Below are positions 7,613-31,592 of a DNA stretch of 64,000 bases, piece after piece. Position 1 is the first letter of the stretch. Every line of letters begins with the position of its first letter. The DNA is from Patescibacteria group bacterium (GTDB taxonomy: Bacteria > Patescibacteriota > Patescibacteriia > 2-12-FULL-60-25). Where the stretch lies: NCBI GenBank assembly GCA_029210915.1, contig JARGGJ010000004.1, positions 15,327 to 79,326 on the forward strand, read 5' to 3'. Made by a program: the position numbers and the translations under genes. A model generated the notes under the pieces. That model ran no database searches. It worked only from the letters and a program-made list of their open reading frames with translations, and was not told the DNA's origin.

Positions 7613-9817
7613 CTTTTTAAGCATGTCTTGCATTTTTACGGACAAGAGCTGGGAAGTGCCGTTATCGCCCATACTGACACCGTAGAGGATGTGGGCTCGT
7701 TCCATGGTGGCTCTGTTGTGGGTTACAACAACAAACTGAGTTTGATCGGCCAGAGAGCTGATGATTTCGGCGAATTTTCGTGAGTTTGACTCATCGAGGG
7801 CGGCATCAACCTCATCGAGTACAACAAATGGAGATGGGTTAGTGGCCATGATTGCGCAAATGAGCGCGATGGAGCAAAGCGCGCGTTCACCGCCCGATAG
7901 GAGCGCGATGGCTTTAAGGCGTTTGCCCGGGGGTGTTGCCTGGATATCGATGCCGATTGGACCGGCAGAGGAATCGACGGGTTTAACAACTATCCCCTCT
8001 TCGTTAACTTCGGGTTCCGGAAAAACCTCGCTTAAGCCGGCCTCGCCTCCGCCAAAAAGCTTTTTAAAGTAAAGACCAAACTCGTGATTCAGTTTGCGAA
8101 AAGCCGTGCGGCTGCGCTCTGATATTGTTTGATCCAGTTCTTTGATAATGGTTTCGAGTGATGCCATGGCACCAACCAAATCCTCGGTTTGGGTGGTTAG
8201 CTCTTCATAGCGCTTTTTGGTTTCTTCGTATTCTTTCATGGTCTCGGGGTCGATTCCGCCGATCCATTCGAGCTGGGCACGAAGCTTGGTTAATTGCGGA
8301 GCAAGTGATTCCGGGTTTCTGATATCCGTAGCTTTGGAGGCCAGCGATGCCAAATCCGCTTCTTGCTCGGGAATGTGCATGCGAACATCTTCCATAAAAG
8401 CATCACGGCGGGTTTCTATGCGCGCCAGCTCTACCGATGCTTGGCTTTTACGACCTTCGGCGCGTGCGGCTTCGGAGCGTTTGGCGGATAATTGGCGTTG
8501 AACATCAAAAATATGCGAGCGATTCTTTTGTTCGTTGGCATTAAAATCTTCGAGTTCTTTTTGAACAGCCTGAATTTGGTGAGTAATATCATCCATGGCT
8601 GTTACCAGCTCTTCCATTTCTTTTTTGAGCTTGGGATCGGCATCCTTTTCTTGCTCGGGCTCGGGAGCCGGGCGCTGGAGTTTGGAGGTAAGATCGGTAA
8701 TTTGCGCGCGGATGCTTGAGGCGAGTTGTTTGATTTTTTCTACGTCCATTTTATCGGATTCGATGGCTTGCAACAAAGTATCCTGGTCTTGACCGAGAGC
8801 TTCGATGGAACTGATGATTTTAGAGAGTGGCAACGGAGCCCAAGGTTTTTCGGAACGGACTTTGGCTATCTCAACCGATGTTTCGAGCTTAAATTGTTTT
8901 TCACGGAGCTTTGTGCGCTCTTCCATCAATCGATTCAAAGAGGCTCGCAGTTTGCCGAATTCTTCGGATGGCGGGTTGGCGCTTTCCATGGTACGCAGTT
9001 CGGCCTCGCTTTTTTCGGCCTCTGCACTCGCATCATCAGCTTCTTTAGCGGCTCTGTCGCGAGAGGCTTTTGCCGTACTTAAAGCGGATTCGAGATCGCG
9101 ATACATGGCGCCATAATATTGTGTTTGCAGTAATGCCAGCTCTTGCTCGAGAGTTTCGCGTTTTTCCAAACGTTTTACCTGGCGTTCGAGCGAGTTTAAG
9201 CGTGGTTGAATTTCGCGGATTAAAAGCTCGGATTGCCGAAGATTATCGCGCGAGGCATCGAGCTTGTTCATGCTGGATTGGCGCTTGAGTTGGAATGGGC
9301 GCAAACCCGCGGCTTCATCAAAAAAAGCTTTGCGCTCTATTGGAGTTGCAGAGAGAACATCGTCTACCATGCCTTGGCCGATAACGCTGTAGGTGCGCTG
9401 GCCTATGCCTGCTTGAGCTAAAAGCATCACTACATCTGTAAGGCGGGCACCTTGTTTGTTTATTTCGTATTCCGATTGACCATCGCGATAAAGCCGGCGT
9501 GTTATGACAATTTCCGAATAATCCAGCTCGGGCTTATCATCGTTTTCCAATGTCATGGAAACCTCAGCGAACCCTGAGCGGGGCTTTTTCTCTGTACCGG
9601 AAAAAATTACATCTTCGGATTTTTTACAACGTAAAAGTTTTAGGCTTTGCTCGCCCATTACCCAACGCGCCGCATCGGCAATGTTTGACTTGCCGGATCC
9701 GTTGGGGCCAACAACACCGGTTACGCCCCTGCGGCCATCTTTATCGAGCTCATATTCCAAAACAGTTTTACTCGCGAAAGTTTTAAAACCCTGCAATTCC
9801 AAGCGTTTGAGATACAT
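7610..9817 (-). CDS. smc: SMC-family chromosome condensation ATPase, unusually short (735 aa), no recognisable hinge
   Basis: SMC head motifs: FKTFA..., Walker A GPNGSGKSN, QGMVDDVL, signature LSGGERALCSIAL, Walker B FVVLDEVDAALD. The roughly 420 aa between the head halves is heptad-like coiled coil only. Confidence 0.85.
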   Translation of the reverse strand: MYLKRLELQGFKTFASKTVLEYELDKDGRRGVTGVVGPNGSGKSNIADAARWVMGEQSLKLLRCKKSEDVIFSGTEKKPRSGFAEVSMTLENDDKPELDYSEIVITRRLYRDGQSEYEINKQGARLTDVVMLLAQAGIGQRTYSVIGQGMVDDVLSATPIERKAFFDEAAGLRPFQLKRQSSMNKLDASRDNLRQSELLIREIQPRLNSLERQVKRLEKRETLEQELALLQTQYYGAMYRDLESALSTAKASRDRAAKEADDASAEAEKSEAELRTMESANPPSEEFGKLRASLNRLMEERTKLREKQFKLETSVEIAKVRSEKPWAPLPLSKIISSIEALGQDQDTLLQAIESDKMDVEKIKQLASSIRAQITDLTSKLQRPAPEPEQEKDADPKLKKEMEELVTAMDDITHQIQAVQKELEDFNANEQKNRSHIFDVQRQLSAKRSEAARAEGRKSQASVELARIETRRDAFMEDVRMHIPEQEADLASLASKATDIRNPESLAPQLTKLRAQLEWIGGIDPETMKEYEETKKRYEELTTQTEDLVGAMASLETIIKELDQTISERSRTAFRKLNHEFGLYFKKLFGGGEAGLSEVFPEPEVNEEGIVVKPVDSSAGPIGIDIQATPPGKRLKAIALLSGGERALCSIALICAIMATNPSPFVVLDEVDAALDESNSRKFAEIISSLADQTQFVVVTHNRATMERAHILYGVSMGDNGTSQLLSVKMQDMLKK

Positions 9818-18895: not shown

Positions 18896-21800
18896 TTATT
18901 CTGATTTTTCTGTTTTTTCTGATTCTAATGCTTCGGGTTTTACGTTGTCGATTTCTTCGGGGTCGTAATCGCCATCTTCAGTGTCCGCGTCTTCTTCATC
19001 ATCTTCTTCTTGAAGCTCTGGGAAAAGTTCCGGGTGATGGTAGGAGAAGCCGGTTCCGGCTGGGACTAAGCGACCGATGATAACGTTTTCTTTTAAGCCT
19101 TCGAGCAAGTCGACTTTGCCGGTTATGGCAGCGTGTATTAGCACGCGAGCAGTCTCTTGGAAGGATGCGGATGAAAGGAAGGATTCGGTTGTGAGCGCGA
19201 CTTTGGTAATACCCATGAAGAGTTCTTCGAGAACTGCCGGTTCGCCGCCGGTTTCCACGACTTTGCGATTAACATCCTCGGAACGAGCGCGTTCAACGAT
19301 TTCGCCCGGTAAAAGCTCGGTATTGCCGGAATCGCGTACGTAGGCGCGCGAGAACATTTGGCGAATGATAACCTCTATATGTTTGGAGTTGATGCGTTGG
19401 CCTTGGGTTGCGTAGATAGAGAGAATCTCGCGGAGAACATAGTTCATAACTGCAGGGCGGCCCTTTGTTTTGTAAAGGAGGTGCAAATCCCAGTGACCCT
19501 CGGTGAGCACATCACCGGCCTGCACTTCATCGCCGTCTTTAACGAGAATCTTAAAGCCAACCGGAGTTTGATACTCGTGAGCGGATTTACCTTCCCAAAC
19601 AATAAATATCTTGCGTTTGTCGAGGCGTACCGTACCTGTGTGCTCGGATACAATCTCTGTACCATCTTTGCGTACAATAATTACCTGGCCTTCTGTTACT
19701 TTGCCGCCATCTTCCACTTTAACTTCATCCTTAGCGGTAACTACAAATGCATCTTCACGCATTTCATCGGCAAGGATGCGGATAATTTTACCTGTTCTAG
19801 CTTGGTCTACAATACGTTGACCGCCAATGACTTGGATTTCGTGAGCTTCGGGTTCCGCAATTTCAATTTTACCGGAAACCTCGGCCATAACAGCTTTGTG
19901 TTTAGGGATGCGGGCCTCTACCAATTCTTCAACACGAGGAAGACCTTGGGTAATATCAACACCTGTTGCAACACCACCGGTGTGGAAGGTGCGCATGGTA
20001 AGCTGAGTACCAGGTTCACCAATGGATTGAGCGGCAACAACACCAACAGCGGCTCCAAGGTTTACGTGTTCGTTATATGCCAAGTCGTAACCATAACATC
20101 TGGCGCAAAGACCGCGGGCATTACGGCATTTCATAACGGAGCGCACATGAGCTTCGGCAAGCGGTTTCTCTGCGGCTTTCAAGATTTGAATGTGTTCATC
20201 TGTAATAAGTGTATCTTTGGCGACAATCACTTTCTTGGTATCCGGGTGTTTGATTTCTTTTACGGTGTAACGACCCAAAATACGGGTTAGCAAGCCTTCA
20301 CCGATTTCTTCACACTCTTCGTGTGTTAAGAGGTGGCCATCATCATCTCCACAGTCTTCGCAGGTGATAATAACATCCTGGGCTACATCTACAAGACGGC
20401 GGGTTAAGTGGCCGGCGTTGGCGGTTTTAAGAGCCGTATCGGTTAAACCTTTTCTGGTACCGTGGGATGAGATGAAATATTCCAAAACGTCCAAGCCTTG
20501 GCGGAAAGAGGATTTGATGGGAAGCTCGATAATACCACCGGAAGGGTTGGTAACGAGGCCTTTCATACCCACAACTTGCATCAGCTGAACAATGGAACCG
20601 CGGGCGCCGGAATCAATCATAGCCGCAACGGATCCCTCTTTATTAAGTGCCGATTTGGAAAGATTTTTAATGCGATCCTGAATGTCAGACCAAACTTTAA
20701 TAATTTGAGTATAACGTTCGCGTTTGGTGAGTAAACCATCTCTGTATTGTTCTTCGATAATCTTAACGCGGCCGGCGGCTTCTTCCATAATATCATCCTT
20801 TTCCACGATGGTTGGAAGGTCACCGACACCGTAAGAGAAACCGGATTTGGTAATATATTTGTAACCCAGCGCTTTGATTCTATCCAAAAGTTGAGCGGTT
20901 ACCTCAAAACCAAATTGATCGATCGAGCTTTGCGTGATTTCGGCAAGTTGTTTTTTGCCAAGCAAGTCGTTTTTAAACGGCATACCTTCGGGCAAGATTC
21001 GATTAAACAAGACACGACCAACGGTAGTCTCTGTAGGTTTTTCACCGGGGTTTAAGCGAACATTGATTTTTTCACGAATTGGCAGATAACCGGCTTGATA
21101 TGCGTAGACAGCCTCGTCTGTAGATGCGAAGTTACGTGTTTTATCACCCTCGGGTTCAAACATCGAGGTCATGTAATAGACTCCCCAAACAATATCTTGA
21201 GATGGAGTTGTAACAGGGGTTCCGGTGGCCGGTTTAAGCAAGTTCTTGGTAGACAACATTATATCGCGAGCCTCGGTGCGTGCTTCTTCGGTTAACGGGA
21301 CGTGAACAGCCATTTGATCTCCATCGAAGTCGGCGTTAAAAGCGGAACAGACCAATGGATGAATTTGGATGGATTTGCCCTCGATAAGAACCGGTTGGAA
21401 ACCTTGGATGCCCAAGCGGTGAAGAGTTGGAGCACGGTTTAGAAGAACGACAGCATCACGCGCTATGTTTTCCAGAATATCCCAAACCTCGGGATTATCG
21501 GATTCGATAAACCTGTTGGCACTGCGGATATTGTGAACGATCTCTTGTTTGATGAGCTGGGAAATGATGAATGGACGGAACAGCTCGAGAGCCATGGTTT
21601 TAGGCAATCCGCATTGATGCATTTTTAGATATGGACCAACAACGATAACGGAACGGCCGGAATAGTCTACGCGTTTACCAAGTAGGTTTTGGCGGAAACG
21701 GCCTTGCTTTCCTTTTAAGCCATCAGCTAAAGATTTTAGCTGGCGTTTTTTACCCGTTGAGGCTAATACGGTTTTTGAATGGCGAGCGCTGTTATCAATA

Positions 21801-22921
21801 AGTGCGTCTACAGCTTCTTGAAGCATGCGTTTTTCGTTTCTGGTAATAACCTCTGGGGCATGAAGTTCGATTAGACGCTTTAAGCGATTGTTGCGATTGA
21901 TAACACGGCGATATAAATCGTTTAAATCGGAGGTGGCAAACCGGCCTCCATCCAAAGCAACCATCGGGCGCATATCCGGAGGAGTGACAGGCACAACTTT
22001 CAGTACCATCCAATTTGGTTCAATTTTTTGTTGATTGAATGATTTTAAGAGTTTTAGACGGCGAATGAGATGCTCGTATTTTGCACCGCCGGCTTTTAAC
22101 AACTCTTCTTCCAAGACAGCAACCGTAGCGTCTACATCAATCTTTTTTAAGAGTTCATCCAAAGCCTCGGCTCCGATTTTGGCTTCAAAAATATGACCGA
22201 ATTTTAGCGCGTACTCGTGGTATTCGTTCTCGGAAAGAATCTTAAGCGGTTGAAGAGTTTTTAATTCTTTCTCGGCTTCGCTGTTATCTTCGTCGAGTTC
22301 GGTGAGCTTGCGTTCTTTATCGCCATGAGCACGATCGAGTTCTTTGGTTTTTTCGGCCTCTTTCATGTCGGCCTTTTCATTTATACGCTGAACATTGCGC
22401 TCGTACTCGGATTCGATTTGTTTGCGTTTGCCTTTATACTCTGTACGCAATTGCTCGATAACTTGCTCACGAAGCTCGTCATCGACTTCGGTGACTATGA
22501 AGGATGCAAAGTAAACAACCTTTTCCAGATTCATAACCGAGAGGTCGAGCACGGTACCGATGCGCGATGGAACACCGCGCAAAAACCAGATATGTGTAAC
22601 CGGCGCGGCAAGCTCAATGTGACCCATGCGTTCGCGGCGAACAAGTGAGTGAGTTACCTCCACTCCGCATTTGTCGCAGATGATTCCTTTGTAGCGAATC
22701 TTCTTATATTTTCCGCAATAACATTCCCAATCTTTTGATGGGCCAAAAATCTCTTCGGCAAATAAGCCGCTTTTCTCGGGTTTTTGTGTGCGGTAGTTGA
22801 TTGTCTCAGGCTTTGTTACCTCGCCGTAAGACCAGTCGCGGATTGTTTCGGGCGAAGCAAGCTTGAGCCTAATGCCGTTAAAATCCGTGGTTTTGACGTT
22901 TTCTGTTTGAAAAAATGACAT
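18896..22921 (-). CDS. rpoC: DNA-directed RNA polymerase subunit beta-prime
   Basis: 1341 aa with the catalytic [14 protein letters not shown] motif and a poly-acidic C-terminal tail. Immediately downstream of rpoB. Confidence 0.97.
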
Positions 22922-22930
22922 AAGCGAGGA

Positions 22931-25900
22931 TTAAGATTTAGGAGATACTTCATTATTAGATTCCCAGGTGAACTCTTCCGTTGCCGAGGCTGTTTGTTTG
23001 ATTACCGCGGGTTTTGTTTCTTCCAGACGTTTTCCGTTCTTTAACAGTTCAACCTCCAAACACAAACCTTTAAGCTCGCGCATAAGAACGTTGAATGATT
23101 CTGGAACGTTGACTTTGGAAATCGGCTCGCCTTTGATGATAGCCTCGTAAGCTTTAGAACGGCCAACAACATCATCAGATTTGATGGTAAGAATTTCTTG
23201 CAAAGTATGAGCAGCGCCGTAAGCTTCCAAAGACCAAACTTCCATTTCTCCAAAACGCTGACCACCTGATTGAGCCTTACCTCCCAATGGTTGTTGAGTG
23301 ATAAGTGAGTAAGGGCCAATGGAGCGTTGGTGAATTTTATCTTCTACCATGTGAACCAGTTTCAAAATGTAGTTGTAGCCAACTGTTGGCGCGTGTTCGT
23401 AAGATTCACCGGTTCGGCCATCAAATAATTTAATCTTTCCGTCCTCGGGATAGTTGCCTTTGGCTAATTCTTCGTGAATTGTTTGTTCGGAGATACCATC
23501 AAAAACCGGAGTGGCTACATTATATCCACCGGCATTAGCCGCGAGACCCATATGCGTTTCCAAAATCTGACCCAAGTTCATACGAGAAACAACGCCAAGC
23601 GGGGAAAGAATGATATCGACCGGTGTTCCGTCTTCCAAGAAAGGAAGATCCTCTACGGGAACGATGCGGGATATAACACCCTTGTTACCGTGGCGGCCGG
23701 CGAGTTTATCGCCAACTTGGATTTTGCGAAGGTCGGCTACGGCTATAACGATGCGTTTTAATACACCGGGTTGAAGCTTATCGCCGTTTTCGCGTGTGAA
23801 GGTTGTGATGCCTACAATTTTACCGCGAGCACCGTGCTGAAGGTAAAGCGATGTATCGCGGACATCGCGGGCTTTTTCTCCAAAGATGGCACGCAGAAGT
23901 TTTTCTTCGGCGGATAAATCGGTCTCGCCTTTTGGTGTGATTTTACCAACTAAAATATCACCGGATTTTACTTCGGCACCAATACGGATTACACCGTTTT
24001 CATCCAGATTTTTGAGTTTTTCCTCGGATACATTTGGGATATCGTTGGTAACAACTTCGGGGCCAAGCTTGGTATCGCGGACATCCATGGCGAAGTGCTC
24101 GATATGCACAGAGGTGAAACGATCTTGATGAACCAAGCGTTCGGAAAGGATAATAGCATCTTCAAAGTTGTAGCCGTCCCAACAGAGATATGTGCAAAGC
24201 AAGTTTTGACCGAGAGCGAGTTCCCCGTTTTGGCAGGATGCTCCGTCAACTAAAACTTCGCCGGCATAAACTTTTTGATCTTTATCTACACGAACATGTT
24301 GGTTTAAACAGGTTGATTGGTTGGAGCGTTGGAATTTGATTAGCTCGTAGCGATGTATCTCGCCACGTTCCGTTGTTATTTCCACATGATTCGCGGCAAG
24401 TGATGTGATAGTGCCATCATCCGGAGCCAAGATGGCATGGCCGGAATCTACAGCCGCACGACGCTCTACACCCGTGCCGACAATCGGAGCATCGGGTTTG
24501 ATGCATGGCACAGCCTGGCGTTGCATGTTGGAACCCATAAGCGCGCGCTGGCCATCATCGTGCTCAACGAAAGGAATGAGGGAAGTTGATATTGATAGAA
24601 TTTGTTTTGAGGAAACATCCAGGTAATCTATTTCGTGAACATCGACAACCGTAGGCTCGCCGTTTTTACGAGCAGGTGTACGGTCTACCAAAAAGTTTCC
24701 TTGTCTATCGATTGGGGTTGTGGCCGGGGCCGTTGTTCCACGCTCTTCGGTGAAGGCGTTTAAGTAAACAATTTCACCTGTAACTTTTGGAATCAAAGGA
24801 ATTTGAGTGAGTGGAAGATCGGTGAGTTTTTTGGCGATTTCTTTGGTTACTTCATTGCCGGCTTTGGCAATGGATTTTCCGGAACCGTCGTTAACATCTA
24901 CACGCAAGATTCCACCAACAGCATCTTTGCCGTCGTTTTGCGCCCAGTTCTTGACCTTGCGATATGGAGTCTCGATAAATCCATACTCGTTGATACGAGC
25001 ATAGCTACTCATGTGGCCAACAAGACCGATGCTTGGGCCTTCGGGAGATTGAATGGGGCAAATACGGCCATAGTGAGTGCGGTGCACATCGCGGACTTCG
25101 AAACCGGCACGCTCGCGGGTTAAACCTCCGGGGCCTGTGGCTGATAAACGACGTTTATGCTCGAGCTCTGAAAGCGGATTGGTTTGATCCATGAACTGCG
25201 AGAGTTGGGATGACATGAAGAACTCGCGCACAGCGGCAATAACCGGGCGGGCGTTGATAAGCCTGCCGGGAGTCAGCACGCTAATATCCTGGGTGCTCAT
25301 GCGATCTTTGATGATGCGCTCCATGCGAGCCAAACCAATGCGGAAACGGCCTTTGATAAGCTCACCAATGGCGCGGACACGGCGATTACCCAAGTGGTCG
25401 ACATCATCCGGTTCTTCTTGAGTATTGTTTAATCTGATTATTTCTTTAAGAATGGCTACCAAATCTTCTTTGGAAAGGATACGGTTCTCTTCGGCAAAAA
25501 CCATTTCATGATCCCAAGGCATGCCAAAGCGTTGATTGAATTTATAACGACCAACCGGACCCAAGTCATAACGCTCGAACTTGAAGAACATGGAGTGAAT
25601 AAGCGACTTGGCGTTATCGGCAGTGGCGAGATCACCCGGGCGTATGCGTTTGTAGACTTCGATATAACCTTCGTCTTCGGTTTTGGCGGAATCTTTGGCC
25701 AGAGTTGATTCGATGTATTTGTTCATCGGGTGAATATCAACATCTTCGAAGGCTTTCAAAATATCCTCATCTTCCGTTAAACCAAAAGTTCTAAGCAGTG
25801 AAGTTGCGGCCACTTTGCGTTTGCGGTCGATTTTGACGTAAATGACATGATTGGAATCGGTCTCAAACTCAAGCCAGGCACCGCGGTCGGGAATAACTTT

Positions 25901-26386
25901 AGCGCCATAGTAACGGCGGCCGCGCGCGCTTTCGGCGGTAAAGAATGCACCGGCGGAACGGACCAGCTGAGAAATAACAACACGCTCGACACCATTGATA
26001 ACAAAAGTACCGCGGTCTGTCATGACGGGAAGATCGCCTAAATATATTTCTTGTTCTTTGGATTCACCGGAACGCTTGTTGACCAAACGAGTTTTTACGC
26101 GAAGAGGAGCCTCGTAAGTGATGCTCTTTTTCTTTGATGTCTTCTCGTCAAACTTTGGTTCGTCTAAAAAATAATCAACGAATGAAAGTTCGAGATCACG
26201 GCCAATAAAATCTCGGACCGGGGAAATCTCGTGAAACAGATCTTTGATACCTGTTTCGATGAACCAGCGATAGCTTTGCTTTTGAACCTCGATTAAATCG
26301 GGTAAAGCCATGGCATCGCGTGATGCGGTAAAATAACGACGCTCGCGATCTTTTACATCTTGGCGTCTGAAAACCATTTTACTCAT
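22931..26386 (-). CDS. rpoB: DNA-directed RNA polymerase subunit beta
   Basis: 1151 aa with conserved blocks throughout (GDKLAGRHGNKGVISRI, GGQRFGEMEVWSLEAYGAAHTLQE). Confidence 0.97.
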   Translation of the reverse strand: MSKMVFRRQDVKDRERRYFTASRDAMALPDLIEVQKQSYRWFIETGIKDLFHEISPVRDFIGRDLELSFVDYFLDEPKFDEKTSKKKSITYEAPLRVKTRLVNKRSGESKEQEIYLGDLPVMTDRGTFVINGVERVVISQLVRSAGAFFTAESARGRRYYGAKVIPDRGAWLEFETDSNHVIYVKIDRKRKVAATSLLRTFGLTEDEDILKAFEDVDIHPMNKYIESTLAKDSAKTEDEGYIEVYKRIRPGDLATADNAKSLIHSMFFKFERYDLGPVGRYKFNQRFGMPWDHEMVFAEENRILSKEDLVAILKEIIRLNNTQEEPDDVDHLGNRRVRAIGELIKGRFRIGLARMERIIKDRMSTQDISVLTPGRLINARPVIAAVREFFMSSQLSQFMDQTNPLSELEHKRRLSATGPGGLTRERAGFEVRDVHRTHYGRICPIQSPEGPSIGLVGHMSSYARINEYGFIETPYRKVKNWAQNDGKDAVGGILRVDVNDGSGKSIAKAGNEVTKEIAKKLTDLPLTQIPLIPKVTGEIVYLNAFTEERGTTAPATTPIDRQGNFLVDRTPARKNGEPTVVDVHEIDYLDVSSKQILSISTSLIPFVEHDDGQRALMGSNMQRQAVPCIKPDAPIVGTGVERRAAVDSGHAILAPDDGTITSLAANHVEITTERGEIHRYELIKFQRSNQSTCLNQHVRVDKDQKVYAGEVLVDGASCQNGELALGQNLLCTYLCWDGYNFEDAIILSERLVHQDRFTSVHIEHFAMDVRDTKLGPEVVTNDIPNVSEEKLKNLDENGVIRIGAEVKSGDILVGKITPKGETDLSAEEKLLRAIFGEKARDVRDTSLYLQHGARGKIVGITTFTRENGDKLQPGVLKRIVIAVADLRKIQVGDKLAGRHGNKGVISRIVPVEDLPFLEDGTPVDIILSPLGVVSRMNLGQILETHMGLAANAGGYNVATPVFDGISEQTIHEELAKGNYPEDGKIKLFDGRTGESYEHAPTVGYNYILKLVHMVEDKIHQRSIGPYSLITQQPLGGKAQSGGQRFGEMEVWSLEAYGAAHTLQEILTIKSDDVVGRSKAYEAIIKGEPISKVNVPESFNVLMRELKGLCLEVELLKNGKRLEETKPAVIKQTASATEEFTWESNNEVSPKS

Positions 26387-26497
26387 GGTGTGACGTGTTT
26401 AATCCCGAGAAAAGCCTTAGCCGGACCAGAACTGCAGACATAAGAGCGGAGAGTCTGGCGACAGTAAGAATTTAAAGCGGGTTTTTTAGATAAGAAA

Positions 26498-26527
26498 CAA
26501 AAAGCCTCCGAAAGTTCGGGGTTTTTG
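26498..26527 (-). terminator. Stem-loop flanked by A and T runs inside the rpoB leader (possible attenuator or insulator)
   Basis: Minus-strand reading aaaaaCCCCGAActTTCGGAGGcttttt, about 115-140 nt upstream of the rpoB ATG. Confidence 0.4.
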
Positions 26528-26649
26528 GATGGGTTTATTTTTAGACAGAAGTGATATGCATGAAATAATGTTGACTCCCTATTTTGGAGAGTTTTTTGCC
26601 GCTTAATGCAGCAGATAATTTTTCTGTCAAATTTTTGTTTACTCGCGCG

Positions 26650-26678
26650 ATTATCACATTATTGAGCTTAGTTGTCAA
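26650..26678 (-). promoter_or_regulatory. Candidate rpoBC promoter (TTGACA-17 nt-GATAAT on the minus strand)
   Basis: The plus strand shows tgtcaa at 26673-26678 and attatc at 26650-26655. This implies a leader of about 255 nt before the rpoB ATG. Confidence 0.45.
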
Positions 26679-26774
26679 GCTTTCTGTGGATGAATCTTAT
26701 AATCATCTTTTGTAAACCTTGGCAATATTTGATACTTTTTAAGTTAACTCAGCAAAAAACAATAATAGAGCCAC

Positions 26775-26861: not shown

Positions 26862-27602
26862 ATGCTTCAAACCTATCTACAAAAAAGAAGGGCGGTTGCG
26901 GAACTTTTGCACTGCGCTGAAAGATTGGCAAAGTGCATCGAGTGCAGACAAGTGGATGACCACTTGTTGGATATTGCGTGGAATCTCCTTCACAGACACG
27001 CCAAGTCACGCAGACTTTTGAAGGAATTCAACGCTCTTTTGCCGGAGGCACTGGAAAAAGCACCTCGCACATCCAAAGGTTACCGCCTCTGCGATGAGCA
27101 GGTGGAGCACCTTGCCCAGGCCAAGCAAACGTTTGAACTGCGGGCATACGCCTTAAGCGTTGAACTGGCGGAACTGGCGGAAAGCCGGCTAAAACGCGAT
27201 CTTGAAGCCCTGAACGAGTGGTGGAAGCACTGCTCCGCCGAAGAACGAGACATCGCTTTTTCGGCGATTGCTTCGGCAACAGGTGCCAACAAGCCGGCAC
27301 GATTGCTCTCGGCGGCAAAGGGCGAGAAGCGCATCATGCTTTTGGCTCTAGGCATGGAGGCTGTCGAGCTTGTCTACAAGCAAGCTCGAGTGCAAGCCGC
27401 GAAATGGAAAGCTTTGAATGACAAAGACCAAAGAAAGGTCATGAAAAGCATCCATACGCACACCGGAATGGATCCGAATGAATGGTGGAGCCGAGCCACC
27501 ATCATTGAAAGGACAAAGGTTTTGAAAGAGCTTCTAGGCGTTCTGGAAGATGCGGAAGAGGCAAAAAAAGCTCTGAAAAAGAGCAAAACCGGTACCGCCT
27601 AA
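26862..27602 (+). CDS. Orphan hypothetical protein ORF246 (mostly helical, no recognisable motif)
   Basis: 246 aa. SD GGAGG 5 nt before the ATG, own TTGACA promoter at 26775 and terminator at 27608. Higher G+C than the neighbours by eye. Confidence 0.65.
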   Translation: MLQTYLQKRRAVAELLHCAERLAKCIECRQVDDHLLDIAWNLLHRHAKSRRLLKEFNALLPEALEKAPRTSKGYRLCDEQVEHLAQAKQTFELRAYALSVELAELAESRLKRDLEALNEWWKHCSAEERDIAFSAIASATGANKPARLLSAAKGEKRIMLLALGMEAVELVYKQARVQAAKWKALNDKDQRKVMKSIHTHTGMDPNEWWSRATIIERTKVLKELLGVLEDAEEAKKALKKSKTGTA

Positions 27603-27607
27603 CCTTG

Positions 27608-27636
27608 ACCCGACTGTAAAGTCGGGTTTTCTTTTT
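27608..27636 (+). terminator. Intrinsic terminator after ORF246
   Basis: ACCCGACT-gtaa-AGTCGGGT followed by tttcttttt. Confidence 0.8.
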
Positions 27637-27725
27637 ATCTATTTTTAGCCTAATTTTGTAAATTTGGCTTAACTAAGGCAATATTTTTTTGGCTAAGTTC
27701 AGCTTAAAAAACATGCCAAGCACTC

Positions 27726-27754
27726 TTGACAAAATGCTCTTTTTGTGGTATAGT
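27726..27754 (+). promoter_or_regulatory. Promoter P2 driving the structured RNA region
   Basis: TTGACA (27726-27731), 17-nt spacer, TATAGT (27749-27754). This is the best promoter match in the window. Confidence 0.65.
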
Positions 27755-27760
27755 TATTTG

Positions 27761-28190
27761 TTCATTAAATGAGATACCGCCAATAATCATCTCGAAAGAT
27801 ATAGAGGAGGAAGGCAACTCTTGCAGATACCCAAACATGGGAATTCTGCGGAACGAGTAAGAACCTATGAAAATCCGGTTTCGACTGGAATTCCATAGTA
27901 GTACTGCTCACAGATATTCAGCGCTTCGGTGTTATGGATATCCGCCGTCTCCGCATTTACTTGCGGAGCCCTCTAGATCCTTCCAGATGATATTAAACAA
28001 TAATGTCTCGAAAGACGTGGGGGAGAGAGATTCTCTCTGTGGGCGGGCGTTTTAACGTCATGTACCACAGGTGCTCCATAGACCTTAATGCAGTTTGGTT
28101 TTAGGACTGAACTAACATTTTGATGCTATGGTGCGGATTTACCGGTATTTTTAATACCAGGTAATCCCCTCCGCATCTATCGAGATATTT
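27761..28190 (+). ncRNA. Candidate novel structured RNA of about 430 nt (free ncRNA, or a very long leader of the 61-aa ORF)
   Basis: No ORF with an RBS. Many helices: GGAATTC/GAATTCC (27840/27888), UUCG-loop hairpin (27921-27934), CTCCGCA/TGCGGAG (27949/27962), GCTCCATAG/CTATGGTGC (28071/28126), nested TGCGGA..ACCGGTA..TACCAGGT..TCCGCA (28131-28175). An internal duplicated module CAATAAT-NTCT-CGAA-AGAN-G-rich occurs at 27781 and 27998, with a compensatory A:U to G:C change. Confidence 0.5.
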
Positions 28191-28327
28191 TGATACCTAA
28201 ATTACAAATAATAAATAATAAATAATAAAGATTGTGTCACTTTGTGAATTTAATTATACTATCTATGTAATGTGATACTAATTGGTTATTGTTAATTGAT
28301 TATTGATTATTGATTATTTCAAGTTTT

Positions 28328-28513
28328 ATGCCCAAGCAAAAGAGTCATGAGGTTATGCCTCAAAAATCTGATGAGATAGTGATAACTATCAACCCTTTTG
28401 ATATCGAAAAACGTGTCAGAAAACCTTTACCGCCTCCATCGCGGTTTCATAAGGACAAATCAAAATATTCTAGAAAACAAAAACATGGGCAGGATTTTGG
28501 AAAAAATGAATAA
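28328..28513 (+). CDS. Small basic hypothetical protein (61 aa)
   Basis: MPKQKSHEVMPQKSDEIVITINPFDIEKRVRKPLPPPSRFHKDKSKYSRKQKH. It lies between the structured RNA region and the terminator at 28576. No SD. The track start at 28310 is inside a ggttattg repeat. Coding status is uncertain. Confidence 0.35.
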   Translation: MPKQKSHEVMPQKSDEIVITINPFDIEKRVRKPLPPPSRFHKDKSKYSRKQKHGQDFGKNE

Positions 28514-28575
28514 GTGGAAGGATGTTAGAAAAATGGCTTAAATAAAGCTTTTATTCTACGATCTTTACACCAAAT

Positions 28576-28602
28576 AAAAATCGGGCATTTTGCCCGATTT
28601 TT
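28576..28602. terminator. Bidirectional intrinsic terminator
   Basis: aaaaa-TCGGGCA-ttt-TGCCCGA-ttttt. It closes the P2 unit. Confidence 0.8.
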
Positions 28603-28627
28603 ATGTTTACAAAAAGCGGGCAGAGGC

Positions 28628-28656
28628 TTGACAATTACCCTGTTTTTTGCTAAGGT
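28628..28656 (+). promoter_or_regulatory. Promoter P3 for ORF526
   Basis: TTGACA (28628-28633), 17-nt spacer, TAAGGT. Confidence 0.6.
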
Positions 28657-28662
28657 TTCAAA

Positions 28663-28939
28663 TCTTCGAAATGGAAATCTTCATGGAGGGGAAAGCGATT
28701 AGCTTTTGTTTACATGACTCCGGCCGGCGCTGGACTCTATGTACACATGGGCACCCTTGGCTCGCATTATGCAAATGCAAAAACGTGAGTCGCCTCCATA
28801 AAGATTTCCGATTCCGGGAATTACATGATGGTAATTAGCATCATGTCAAAACACTCCTCTCCGGCTTACAACCAAAGAGGATAAAACTTAAACCGAACCT
28901 TACATTTTTTCTCAAGAAGTTTGTGAAAGGAAAAAGATC
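28663..28939 (+). promoter_or_regulatory. Structured 5-prime leader of ORF526 of about 275 nt (candidate cis-regulatory RNA)
   Basis: Long-range closing helix GGAAATCTTCATGGAGG (28674-28690) with CCTCCATAAAGATTTCC (28793-28809), enclosing about 100 nt with sub-hairpins. Then CATGATG-gtaattag-CATCATG (28825-28846) and CCTCT...AGAGG (28856-28880). Confidence 0.45.
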
Positions 28940-30520
28940 ATGAGCGAAAATAAAGAAGAACAGATCATCGATCTCCACCTCCGATTCAACACAGTGATCT
29001 CAGTCCCCAAAAAAGCAGTTGCGATGGGCTCCGAACGGTATGCAAAATTCGCGTTGCGCAATGTTGAGGCAACCGTGCGGGTGAGTGTGCCCAAATGGGC
29101 GTTGGACTCGGGAGATATCAAGGTTCCCAAGGAAAGAAAGGGGATTTTGGGATCGTTCGAGATTCTGATGAACGCGTCTCTGCCCGACGAGACCCTTGCA
29201 TTTGAGCTAACGCGTGAAGATTACGCGAGGCTGGATTTGCTGAAGGTGGAGTTCGACAGAGATTCCGTGCCGGGGATGGTGCTCGTTAAGATCGAGTTGC
29301 CATTGCCGGCAGCAATTGTTGAGAAGCAGATCAATGCGTCCAGAAAATACATGGGTACGGATTGTTCTCAATCGGCTGGCTGTGTTGTGGTGAACAACGT
29401 GGCAGGGGTGAAACCGCCGCACCAGGGTACGGGTCGAGGACGGTACCGAGGCAAGAACGTTGGAAACAGCCAACCGTTGAATCATGAGTTGAATACGATC
29501 AATGGTTACTGGTTCGACTACTGGGTGAACCGTCCGGAAGACCCGGAGGAGGCGGCGCCCGGAACGGTGGTGAAGTACACTGACACGTACTTCTGGCCTG
29601 CGGAGTGCAAGCTGTGTGTTCAGGTAAGCGACGAGATGCTCGCTGATCCCAAGGATCTGGTGATGGAAGAGCGAGGTCAGCTCACGCACAAGCACACGGC
29701 GCTTATGGGAGCGCACGCCAACTTGCTGCGAACCATTGCAGATGGATATTTCCGGATCTATATGGTGCCGGAGATCGTTCCGTTTGTCGTTGGCAAAGGC
29801 CAAAGGAACTTCTTCACACACAAGTTCCCAGAATTGGTCGCCGCGCTGGACAACAATAAAGTCTCGGCAATGCTGCAAGGCTCGGGGCATTTTCAGCCCC
29901 GAGACGAGGTAGCATATGACTTTTACTGTTGTAATGGGGCGAACGATCCGAACTCCGGTTCGGTGTTCATGACCTCGGCGTGCTTTGGGCGCACTCAACC
30001 CATTTACCACATGCAGTGGAAGGATGGGCGCAGGCAACCGGTGATTCGGGATGGAGAGAAAGTACTCAACAATCAAGTTGGGCACTTGGTCATTCTCTCC
30101 GACCTGACAGCTCATCAGCTGGAAGGAGCTGTGTTCGAAGCCATGGTCGATGGCACCATGGACAGGTTCTACGAGAAACACGGTTTGCTCTTTCCGGATG
30201 AAGCATTTGCAGGTGATGATTTTGTGGCGGCACAGAGCCACAAGAAAGCAAATCGCGAAGCCAAACAGGGCGACGGCAATGGTGTTCGGGAGAGCTCGAA
30301 GAAGAGCGTCAAGCCCGATCCCGAGCCCGAGCCTGAGCCTGAACCGAAGCCTGTTCAGTTTGGGAGCTTCGATGATGTGCTCCCTCCCCTGCCCGAAGAA
30401 TCCGAACCCGAGGAGTCAGAAGATGATCCGGGTGAAGAATCCGATGGGGAGGATGAGCAGGAAAACGAGAAAACTCAAGACGACGACACCGGTGACGAAC
30501 CCTCGGACTTCCCGGTCTGA
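28940..30520 (+). CDS. Orphan hypothetical protein ORF526 with a PEPEPEPEP linker and poly-acidic C-terminal tail
   Basis: 526 aa. AAGGA RBS, own TTGACA promoter 280 nt upstream, terminator at 30548 and a TGA stop. G+C is high enough to open a 344-aa antisense shadow ORF. No catalytic or DNA-binding motif recognised. Confidence 0.75.
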   Translation: MSENKEEQIIDLHLRFNTVISVPKKAVAMGSERYAKFALRNVEATVRVSVPKWALDSGDIKVPKERKGILGSFEILMNASLPDETLAFELTREDYARLDLLKVEFDRDSVPGMVLVKIELPLPAAIVEKQINASRKYMGTDCSQSAGCVVVNNVAGVKPPHQGTGRGRYRGKNVGNSQPLNHELNTINGYWFDYWVNRPEDPEEAAPGTVVKYTDTYFWPAECKLCVQVSDEMLADPKDLVMEERGQLTHKHTALMGAHANLLRTIADGYFRIYMVPEIVPFVVGKGQRNFFTHKFPELVAALDNNKVSAMLQGSGHFQPRDEVAYDFYCCNGANDPNSGSVFMTSACFGRTQPIYHMQWKDGRRQPVIRDGEKVLNNQVGHLVILSDLTAHQLEGAVFEAMVDGTMDRFYEKHGLLFPDEAFAGDDFVAAQSHKKANREAKQGDGNGVRESSKKSVKPDPEPEPEPEPKPVQFGSFDDVLPPLPEESEPEESEDDPGEESDGEDEQENEKTQDDDTGDEPSDFPV

Positions 30521-30626: not shown

Positions 30627-30655
30627 TTGACAGAAAGTGTTGCATTTAATAGCAT
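30627..30655 (+). promoter_or_regulatory. Promoter P4
   Basis: TTGACA (30627-30632), 17-nt spacer, TAGCAT. Confidence 0.5.
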
Positions 30656-30661
30656 AAAAAA

Positions 30662-30826
30662 ACAATGCGGTTTGCAAGTTGCGAAACGAAGCGCGACCGG
30701 TAAAGAAATTCATGGTTACTCAATTTATTGAGTTCTCTCTCCTCCTATGAAATTCCATACCATCTTTGCGGCAACGTTTCGCAGCTTACAGACCACATAA
30801 AAAAACACCCTTTACCGGGTGTTTTT
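30662..30826 (+). ncRNA. Candidate small RNA of about 160 nt
   Basis: Lies between P4 and the terminator at 30801-30826. Long-range helix TTGCGAAACG (about 30690) with CGTTTCGCAG (about 30775), inner CTCAAT-tt-ATTGAG hairpin and an exposed CU-rich stretch TCTCTCTCCTCCT. Only a 12-codon ORF without an RBS. Confidence 0.4.
30801..30826. terminator. Bidirectional terminator shared by the P4 unit and the rodZ-like gene
   Basis: aaaaa-ACACCC-tttacc-GGGTGT-ttttt. It abuts the stop of the 30825-31592 gene. Confidence 0.75.
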
Positions 30827-31592
30827 AGTTTATGGTTGAGGTGGCGAAAGATTCGGTTGTGGTAGAGTAATCCTGAAAATAGCGGATGGTTTCATTAGGT
30901 GGAGCCGGCCCTTGAATGGGGGCATATGTGATGTATCTGGTTAATTTTGACTCCAATCCATAACGTCGTTTGGCAATGATATCCAATTTGGTTAAACCCC
31001 GCGGAATATCCATGTTTAATGCAAATGAGCCATCTTCTTCCACAACTGCAAAAATACCATTAACAACTACCGAGGCCGTGGGATCGGTTTTTCCTTGGAT
31101 TATTATGCGCGGGCCGGTGATTTGTTCGTTATCTGCCGGCGAGGTTACAGTGAGTGATGGGGACTCGCGAAAAATTTTTGCCTCGTTCCAAACGTAATAC
31201 CCCAATAAAAAAAATATCGGAATAATTATTAAAAAAGGTAAATATTTTGTTGGAGTAAAAAATTCACTGCGTTTTATCTTATGCGTGAACGAATAATTTT
31301 TTGTAGTGTTTCTTATTTCAAAACCATCGCGAACCAAGGCGGCTCTGTACTTTCCAAGGATAAACGGGATTCTGCCATCCAATGCCTTGGTTAGCGCGCG
31401 AACATGCCTCTCGGAGTAATAGGGATCGTTTAATGAGGAGAAATTCTCGCTTTCTAAAGCTTCAATAATATATTCAGAGATACCTGATATTTTTGATAAT
31501 TCTTTTACTGTCCAGCCTCGGAGCTCGCGAAGTTCTTTTAAATCTATTCCAAAACTCTGATCTGTTCCGATACTTTTTTTTATAAAACCCAT
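30825..31592 (-). CDS. RodZ-like HTH (XRE-type) membrane protein
   Basis: 255 aa. N-terminal HTH (LRELRGWTVKELSKISGISEYIIEALE), central TM helix (YLPFLIIIPIFFLLGYYVW) and an extracytoplasmic beta-rich domain. Confidence 0.75.
   Translation of the reverse strand: MGFIKKSIGTDQSFGIDLKELRELRGWTVKELSKISGISEYIIEALESENFSSLNDPYYSERHVRALTKALDGRIPFILGKYRAALVRDGFEIRNTTKNYSFTHKIKRSEFFTPTKYLPFLIIIPIFFLLGYYVWNEAKIFRESPSLTVTSPADNEQITGPRIIIQGKTDPTASVVVNGIFAVVEEDGSFALNMDIPRGLTKLDIIAKRRYGLESKLTRYITYAPIQGPAPPNETIRYFQDYSTTTESFATSTIN

Follow-up and report, generated by a model that had tools for sequence, protein, structure and literature searches.

Large bacterial RNAs that are supported by covariation and have no assigned function are rare, and several of them, such as OLE, GOLLD, ROOL and HEARO/omega RNA, later gave unexpected biology. 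Here we describe an RNA from a 64-kb chromosomal stretch of the metagenome-assembled genome of a Patescibacteria group bacterium (64,000 nucleotides (nt) of contig JARGGJ010000004.1; hereafter the window, in whose coordinates all positions are given). Its plus strand carries, behind a strong promoter, a non-coding region of about 430 nt that consists of two tandem, paralogous and individually conserved domains, D1 (27786-27991) and D2 (28002-28189), in each of which a long-range helix of 20-25 base pairs, P1, closes a junction with four or five hairpin arms. A third, paralogous domain, D3, lies further downstream in the 5' leader of the open reading frame (ORF) ORF526, and a gene for a small basic protein stands between D2 and D3. 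The region is almost certainly a genuine functional structured RNA, as had been proposed in an earlier note made from the letters of this stretch. The RNA family is new, with neither an Rfam entry nor a description found in the literature, in which almost no lineage-specific RNAs were found described for Patescibacteria. Large structured RNAs that are confined to one bacterial lineage and have a partner gene next to them are, as a kind, already known; what is unusual here is the modular arrangement in three domains.

Several described systems share some of these features. OLE RNA of extremophilic Firmicutes, which is associated with oapA and other genes, is likewise large, ornate and conserved, has a strong promoter, is confined to one lineage and is followed by a small gene for a candidate partner. 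Yet the RNA described here has no sequence or structure match to OLE, although OLE is included in Rfam; it is made of repeated paralogous domains, one of them in a separate 5' leader, and its candidate partner is a basic, soluble-looking peptide of 60 amino acids (aa), whereas the OLE partner is a membrane protein. The glycine tandem-aptamer and lysine five-way-junction riboswitches likewise place two related but non-identical domains side by side in a 5' region, have conserved unpaired nucleotides in their multi-way junctions and occur before more than one transcription unit. On the other hand, the present domains match no riboswitch family in Rfam, their P1 helices of 20-28 base pairs (bp) are not of the short, switchable type, no expression platform was found, and neither downstream gene has a metabolic identity. 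Ribosomal-protein leaders and the three PyrR sites of the pyr operon are likewise repeated RNA elements, placed, as here, before the gene of a small basic (candidate RNA-binding) protein and before the next gene. Such protein operators are simple and 30-150 nt long, whereas here they would be multi-arm junctions of 115-205 nt with a conserved core of their own, and the protein is only a candidate binder. The hosts are little studied and have tiny genomes, for which keeping 0.6 kb of conserved non-coding RNA next to rpoBC is a considerable investment.

Two tandem domains and their homologs

The proteins ORF526 and ORF246, encoded on either side of the RNA, have one or two relatives each among 5.8 billion proteins, and the contigs of these relatives, L001 and L002, hold the same intergenic RNA. 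The loci around rpoB in its closest relatives (84-98% identical in amino acids), retrieved for comparison, all have the same layout with recognisable remnants of the RNA. A DNA pattern of two anchors derived from the relatives, ACGTGGRGGAGAGA-N(120-150)-CCTCCGCAT, matched 12 genome contigs, 15 metagenome contigs and one viral contig; the viral match (L039) and those in five metagenome contigs (L024/L030/L038 and L029/L032) proved to be GC-rich chance matches that gave no alignment. Synteny and the two-anchor pattern together yielded 22 distinct homologs once duplicates were removed, all from Patescibacteria/Uhrbacteria assemblies, and one contig named Candidatus Uhrbacteria (L022) holds a near-identical locus. 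Five records (L012, L016, L018, L019 and L021) are titled 'uncultured Gammaproteobacteria bacterium' yet hold a Patescibacteria-type locus, and in L018 and L019 (contigs shared with L008 and L009) rpoB is 84-85% identical to that of the window; these titles probably reflect a taxonomic mislabel. A phage collection gave no DNA similarity. Among close relatives the RNA is 84-92% identical; between L001 and the window, rpoB is about 85% identical, the flanking ORF246/ORF526 DNA 55-65% and the spacer before the small ORF 46%.

Covariation was counted on MAFFT alignments made from sequence only and not fitted to structure; the consensus structures of D1 and D2 came from RNAalifold, and the controls consisted of 500 shuffles and of helices whose 3' partners were slid by 1-3 columns. 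For D1 (21 sequences), 47 pairs were 94.9% paired and 31 of them changed on both sides, whereas slid registers were 33-45% paired. The 62 pairs of D2 fall into seven helices and were 92.7% paired over 22 sequences, with 33 pairs changed on both sides, against 40-49% in slid registers. For neither domain was any of the 500 shuffles as good. The whole 441-nt region folds much better than dinucleotide shuffles (z = -7.2); since its minus strand folds equally well (z = -7.45), folding energy alone cannot pick the strand. The RNA strand is the plus strand because G·U cells far outnumber A·C cells in the model helices of the three domains (137 to 35, 117 to 18 and 53 to 11).

No reading frame is conserved inside the RNA across 21 homologs, in which the longest ORFs share neither frame nor position nor length, and a protein-coding gene in this region was thereby ruled out. 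A 62-aa ORF of the window corresponds to ORFs of 69, 63, 42 and 35 aa in close relatives and is absent in others; its ATG sits in a stem and reads ATA, ATT, GTA or GTG in 5 of 21 sequences, and L015 and L016 have no ORF longer than 33 aa inside the RNA. The earlier note's two expectations, of covariation among homologs and of no conserved translation, are thus both borne out.

The closing helix of D1, P1, pairs 27790-27807 with 27970-27987 and can be extended to 27786/27991. It encloses P2 (27818-27826/27846-27853, with a CCC/GGG tip at 27830-32/27839-41), P3 (27865-27880/27883-27898, with the tip CCGGU-UUCG-ACUGG), P4 (27913-27924/27931-27942) and P5 (27949-27955/27962-27968), the last folded sequence by sequence. 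In D2, P1 (28002-28023/28168-28189) includes an invariant C·A mismatch and a U·G pair, and is followed by P2 (28024-27/28033-36), P3 (28037-42/28065-70), P4 (28073-80/28127-34), P5-P6 (28087-99/28106-19, with the tip GGU...ACU) and P7 (28135-45/28157-67). A linker at 27992-28001 joins the two domains and varies from 0 to 137 nt among homologs. In L001 (8975-9100) and L026 it has 125-137 nt of additional hairpins, one of which in L001 (GCGGAGGAUGAGGAUGC...GUAUCCCCUCCUCCGC) resembles the P7/P1 end of D2. The purine-rich linker within D1 was considered as a Shine-Dalgarno mimic and rejected, as it is variable (GAGUAAGAA in the window).

Several hairpins that had been read from the single sequence find their place in this model. 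The GCGC-UUCG-GUGU hairpin is the tip of D1 P4 and is supported by comparison, CUCCGCA/UGCGGAG is D1 P5, with hairpins of differing sequences at the same place in 17 of 21 homologs, and GCUCCAUAG/CUAUGGUGC is D2 P4, which covaries. Two other proposed helices do not hold: GGAATTC/GAATTCC clashes with the covarying P2 and P3 and is broken many times, with a single compensatory pair, and the outer TGCGGA/TCCGCA stem does not covary, its UCCGCA being part of the closing helix P1. The duplicated module CAATAAT-N-(A/G)TCT-CGAA-AGA(T/C) is a true sequence repeat, but each pair of the 4-bp hairpin drawn within it is broken in 5-16 of about 21 homologs, with no compensation in any of them. The A:U to G:C change between the two copies, once taken for a compensatory one, was misread, because in each domain the repeat supplies the 5' strand of the closing helix and covaries with the 3' end of that domain. 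Direct repeats inside the RNA region are short ones only. The two-domain layout with its long closing helices had escaped the note altogether, as had D3, the linkage to the small ORF and the dispensability of ORF246.

The RNA was compared with the 4227 covariance models of Rfam 15, both at the gathering threshold and at permissive E-values. At the gathering threshold there was no match in the whole window or in 132 kb of seven homologous loci, which agrees with the earlier note's failure to match the region to RNase P RNA, tmRNA, signal recognition particle (SRP) RNA or a known riboswitch. At E <=10, the sole match within 27755-28195 was mir-875 (16.5 bits), a chance hit, and the GC-richer homologs of L009 and L041 gave chance-level matches only (E <=5). 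ARAGORN found no tRNA or tmRNA gene in the window, and tmRNA was ruled out by this search and by Rfam alike. Bacterial RNase P RNA, with its P4 strands GGAAAGUCC/ACAGAA, was ruled out by the lack of any RF00010 or RF00011 match at E <=10; the 'ACAGAU' of the region varies even among the closest relatives.

It might still be asked whether this is a highly diverged housekeeping RNA (RNase P, tmRNA, 6S or SRP RNA) that the models miss. Genomes of the candidate phyla radiation are known for aberrant RNAs, and a length of about 430 nt, a strong promoter and ribosomal RNA-like conservation would suit RNase P RNA. We consider this highly improbable, given the lack of a match in Rfam even at E 5-10 for the window RNA and the two GC-richer homologs, the lack of a tmRNA by ARAGORN and the variable ACAGAU. 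RNase P RNA is laid out as nested S- and C-domains, whereas here the domains are tandem and self-closed, and occur in variable number, two to three in tandem plus extras.

The length of the closing helices raises another alternative, namely that the P1 helices serve as RNase III substrates, as do the stems of ribosomal RNA precursors, and set the stability or translatability of the messenger RNAs, with the interiors of minor importance. Helices of 20-28 bp, near-perfect and located on the 5' side of messenger RNAs, are what such an element would need. However, conservation and covariation are as strong inside the domains as in the stems, which a mere processing stem would not require, and we regard this explanation as quite unlikely.

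A third copy of the domain upstream of ORF526

D3 (28670-28812, plus strand) begins 480 nt downstream of the D1-D2 RNA, in the 5' leader of ORF526, behind a promoter of its own at 28628-28656 (TTGACA-17 nt-TGCTAAGGT). This promoter is kept as TTGACA-N-TGCTAAG(G/C/T)T in all nine homologous loci inspected. The arms of D3 are a long P1 (GGAAAUCUUCAUGGAGG/CCUCCAUAAAGAUUUCC), a CUCCGGC...GCUGGAC hairpin and a CUCGC...GUGAG hairpin; in an alignment of 17 sequences its 37 pairs are 95.4% paired and 16 are changed on both sides, against 31-46% paired in slid registers.

The relationship of the three domains can be seen from a covariance model of D2, R1. In the window R1 scores 191 bits at D2 and finds no further copy in the 64 kb. 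In related loci it matches D1 nearly everywhere (16-48 bits, best E 2e-15) and, over all helices, the D3 of L009 (44 bits, E 5e-16; E 7e-14 in a wider search); in 250 kb all but one of its matches fall at domain positions. Common to D1, D2 and D3 are a GGAGG/CCUCC-like inner end of P1 (GAGG/CCUC in D1) and one CCGG(U/C)-loop-(A/G)CUGG arm with an invariant G·U. They also share a C·A mismatch located 7 bp away from the junction, which is invariant in D2, is present in 11 of 17 D3 copies and alternates with an adjacent A·G in D1. In more distant relatives (rpoB 79-81% identical), the domain is present three times in L040 and, in L041, three times in tandem and once more, while L042 (rpoB 77% identical) has none, the RNA, the small ORF and ORF526 all being missing together. 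Short tandem RNA-repeat systems (type III toxin-antitoxin, CRISPR and TIGR arrays) were considered and rejected, the units here being 115-205 nt long and mutually diverged; Pfam and fold searches revealed no effector-like domain in the neighbouring proteins.

The placing of covarying, conserved domains in 5' regions, D1-D2 before the small ORF and D3 before ORF526, would suit a riboswitch, and the domain could be an aptamer for a small molecule, an ion or a tRNA, with a tandem pair controlling the small ORF, a single copy controlling ORF526, and the closing helix plus U tract acting as a terminator-embedded aptamer. The same class of domain does stand 5' of two adjacent transcription units, in tandem in one of them, and it is a multi-way junction with invariant unpaired nucleotides. 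The U tract directly after D2 P1 (28190-28196) resembles the terminator-like stem of the HMP-PP (thiS) riboswitch, in which the domain-closing helix is likewise followed directly by a U tract (PMC6478431). That aptamer is tiny (PMC6478431), whereas here the 'loop' is a multi-arm junction of 145 nt; three homologs have a weak U tract or none, and D3 lacks one.

The architecture of the domains argues more directly against a ligand-gated switch. The P1 helices of riboswitches are short and marginally stable, whereas closing helices of 20-28 bp would form without a ligand. No conserved alternative pairing and no mutually exclusive downstream structure were found, the spacers are unconserved, and an apparent switch hairpin after D3 P1 proved to be the extension of P1 itself and was rejected. 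No riboswitch model of Rfam matched even at E 5-10, and neither downstream gene, one for a small basic protein and the other for a protein without structural neighbour, gives a metabolic hint. A riboswitch-like role is thus unlikely.

Promoter, possible 3' end and the linked small basic protein gene

Transcription of the RNA can be attributed to a sigma-70-type promoter with an extended -10 element (TTGACA-17 nt-TGgTATAGT, 27726-27754), from which a start at about 27760 is inferred. The promoter had been put forward as the best in the window; it is real and has 11 of 12 consensus matches, but it ties with four other 11/12 sites, no site reaching 12/12. Of 21 full-length homologs, 20 have a strict TTGACA-N15-19-TAnnnT motif ahead of D1, and L007 has a match only if one mismatch in the -35 element is allowed. 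The RNA opens with a 5' leader (UAUUUGUUCAUUAAA..., 27755-27785) whose first 15 alignment columns are conserved across homologs. Immediately 3' of the last strand of D2 P1 comes the U-rich tail already mentioned: of its first 8 nt, 4 or more are T in 20 of 22 homologs and 5 or more in 16. L015 and L016 (1 and 3 T) lack it, and in L037 (4 T) it is weak. The tail may be a weak 3' end or an attenuator.

Upstream of the promoter, a conserved block at 27644-27712 contains several GCTAA/TTAGC half-sites (for example TTGGCTTAACTAAGGC). It is near-invariant in close relatives, and GGCT(T)AA...TTAGCC-like motifs occur 5' of the RNA promoter in distant homologs; the block may be a regulator site or an UP site for the promoter. 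Half-sites of this type (TTGGCTTAACTAAGGC and similar) recur at 28532-28548, 3' of the small ORF, and GCTAAG is found within the invariant -10 region (TGCTAAGGT) of the D3 promoter at 28648-28656. All of them could be sites for one common regulator.

The 61-aa ORF (28328-28513, plus strand) is a real gene, as judged by alignment and by a hidden Markov model (HMM). Its product is rich in Lys and Arg (consensus IIINPFxIEKKVRKPLPP..HKDKxKYxRKxKH). Wherever the DNA pattern matched and the sequence extends far enough, the HMM finds the gene 3' of the RNA (E 1e-21 to 1e-33), and it does so in L041 as well (E 1e-16). The small ORF usually begins 27-140 nt after D2. Spacers of 27-50 nt mostly have no recognisable promoter, and therefore the RNA and the small ORF are presumably co-transcribed there; longer ones, of about 50 nt or more, frequently have a TTGnnn-17-TAnnAT-like motif. 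In the window, the AT-rich, poorly conserved spacer at 28197-28327 contains a weak promoter-like TTGTGT-17-TATACT (28232-28260). A 14-bp perfect stem with a U run (28574-28604), an intrinsic terminator kept in L001 and L006, closes the unit of RNA and small ORF. Pfam and NCBIfam hold no family that matches the small protein. Its KxKxxYxRKxKH segment has a weak, non-significant local likeness to the ribosomal RNA-binding C-terminal tail of bL21 (PDB profile search, E about 0.7), and its assignment to bS21 or another known family was ruled out. In L003 (about 8680-9060, minus strand), L007 and L026, the RNA and the small ORF are separated by an inserted ORF of some 100 aa (MKKLMFAALYGLVAMACEA...) that is Cys-rich and lipoprotein-like.

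Our leading, still tentative, reading of the locus is that of an RNA-protein unit with feedback, as the shared motifs and the gene order suggest. The small basic protein would recognise the closing-helix (P1)/junction motif common to D1, D2 and D3 and form such a unit with the RNA domains. D1-D2 would then act as a scaffold or sink for the protein and, at the same time, as an autoregulatory site on its own transcript, and D3 would place ORF526 under the same control. The long closing helices could also be RNase III processing sites, so that the domains would be released as stable RNAs. This reading draws on the linkage of the RNA to a candidate partner gene across lineages, as expected of a protein-binding leader, with L042 lacking both: RNA and small ORF co-occur and, in that relative, are lost jointly with ORF526. 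What makes the family tractable is that two domains stand in tandem, that a further copy occupies the leader of a neighbouring gene and that relatives have up to three copies in a row; the linked basic protein gives a concrete and testable RNA-protein hypothesis.

Several observations weigh against it. The link between the small protein and the RNA is based on gene neighbourhood alone, and L040, with its three copies of the domain, is an exception to the linkage, giving no clear homolog of the small protein with the HMM. Another ORF intervenes in L003, L007 and L026, and a promoter-like motif in 10 of 22 spacers means that the small ORF may be transcribed independently there. The likeness to bL21 is non-significant. 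Finally, domains of 115-205 nt, with many invariant junction nucleotides and with conserved features of their own in D1 and D2, far exceed typical protein operators; their size and elaboration would fit an RNA with an activity of its own.

These same features would suit the view that the RNA is a free, trans-acting large non-coding RNA with a structural, catalytic or scaffold role that is independent of the neighbouring genes, comparable to OLE, ROOL, GOLLD or raiA; it would end at the U-rich tract and be linked to the small ORF by no more than operon packaging. Its own strong and conserved promoter, the U-rich tail in most homologs, the separate promoter-like motif before the small ORF in 10 of 22, the poorly conserved spacer (46% identity) and the different next ORF in three lineages would all agree with this, as would conservation at the level of rpoB, size, multi-domain complexity and the individual conservation of the domains. 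Yet a paralogous D3 occupies a clear 5' untranslated position before ORF526, under a different promoter; several homologs have a gap of 27-50 nt between RNA and small ORF, mostly with no recognisable promoter; and the two co-occur in all pattern-matched loci with enough sequence and are lost together in L042. A free RNA is, in our opinion, less probable than the RNA-protein unit. The earlier note had named both a free RNA and a long leader of the 61-aa ORF, and the RNA could be either.

More speculative, and doubtful, is the proposal that the five-armed domain, as a new class of RNA module, and the 60-aa protein constitute a new ribonucleoprotein of a clade of ultra-small symbiotic bacteria, which would be more than a regulatory leader and might be catalytic or might replace a missing housekeeping function, with ORF526 as part of the same system. 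The present alignments have the depth needed for an Rfam seed and for structural work.

Neighbouring genes and minor features

The order on the plus strand is ORF246 with its terminator, the promoter, the non-coding stretch, the 61-aa ORF, its terminator, the second promoter, the conserved leader and ORF526. On one side the locus is flanked by the minus-strand genes rpoB (22931-26386) and rpoC (18896-22921), and on the other by a helix-turn-helix (HTH) gene, ftsK and recA. The earlier note had asked whether homologs always neighbour genes like ORF246 and ORF526. ORF526 (28940-30520, plus strand) is syntenic in the relatives. ORF246 (26862-27602, plus strand; own terminator at 27607-27628) is not a constant partner: a gene of 195-250 aa occupies its position in L001, L002 and L005-L010 but is absent in L003, L040 and L041, and ORF246 is dispensable as a neighbour of the RNA. 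Sequence homology to ORF246 was shown for the close relatives only, and it matches no Pfam family.

ORF526 encodes a lineage-specific protein, of whose family a full profile search found 14 representatives among 1.84 billion proteins, and which likewise matches no Pfam family. Its AlphaFold model is confident (predicted local distance difference test (pLDDT) 79, predicted template-modelling score (pTM) 0.72), beta-rich and with a disordered acidic tail, and has no structural neighbour in PDB or BFVD, so that it offers no clue to function. The ORF526 homologs of L009 (1674-3215) and L010 (1807-3396) contain an insertion that resembles a RecR zinc-finger plus Toprim module, with Pfam Toprim_4 matched in L010; the protein of the window has no such insertion.

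The rpoB leader (26387-26700, minus strand) has an 11/12 promoter with a TG extension at 26678-26650 and a terminator-like hairpin at 26521-26506 ahead of the rpoB start, and is 86-89% conserved relative to L001; it may be an attenuator. In the spacer between D3 and ORF526, a minus-strand 11/12 promoter-like site (TTGACA-18-TGTAAT, 28849-28820) points antisense toward D3, and in L001 a 63-aa ORF was called on that strand. The site in the window is probably due to chance.

Between ORF526 and the convergent HTH gene lies a small-RNA-like unit (30627-30828, plus strand) with TTGACA-17-TAGCAT, a body of about 150 nt and a terminator hairpin at 30805-30823 followed by a T run. The unit is not universal, since L008 has no more than 59 nt at the equivalent place. 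It is 80-86% identical to its counterpart in L001, the adjacent ORF526 DNA being about 57% identical, and it holds UCUCUCUCCUCC, the exact complement of the D2 motif GGAGGAGAGAGA that is found in most homologs.

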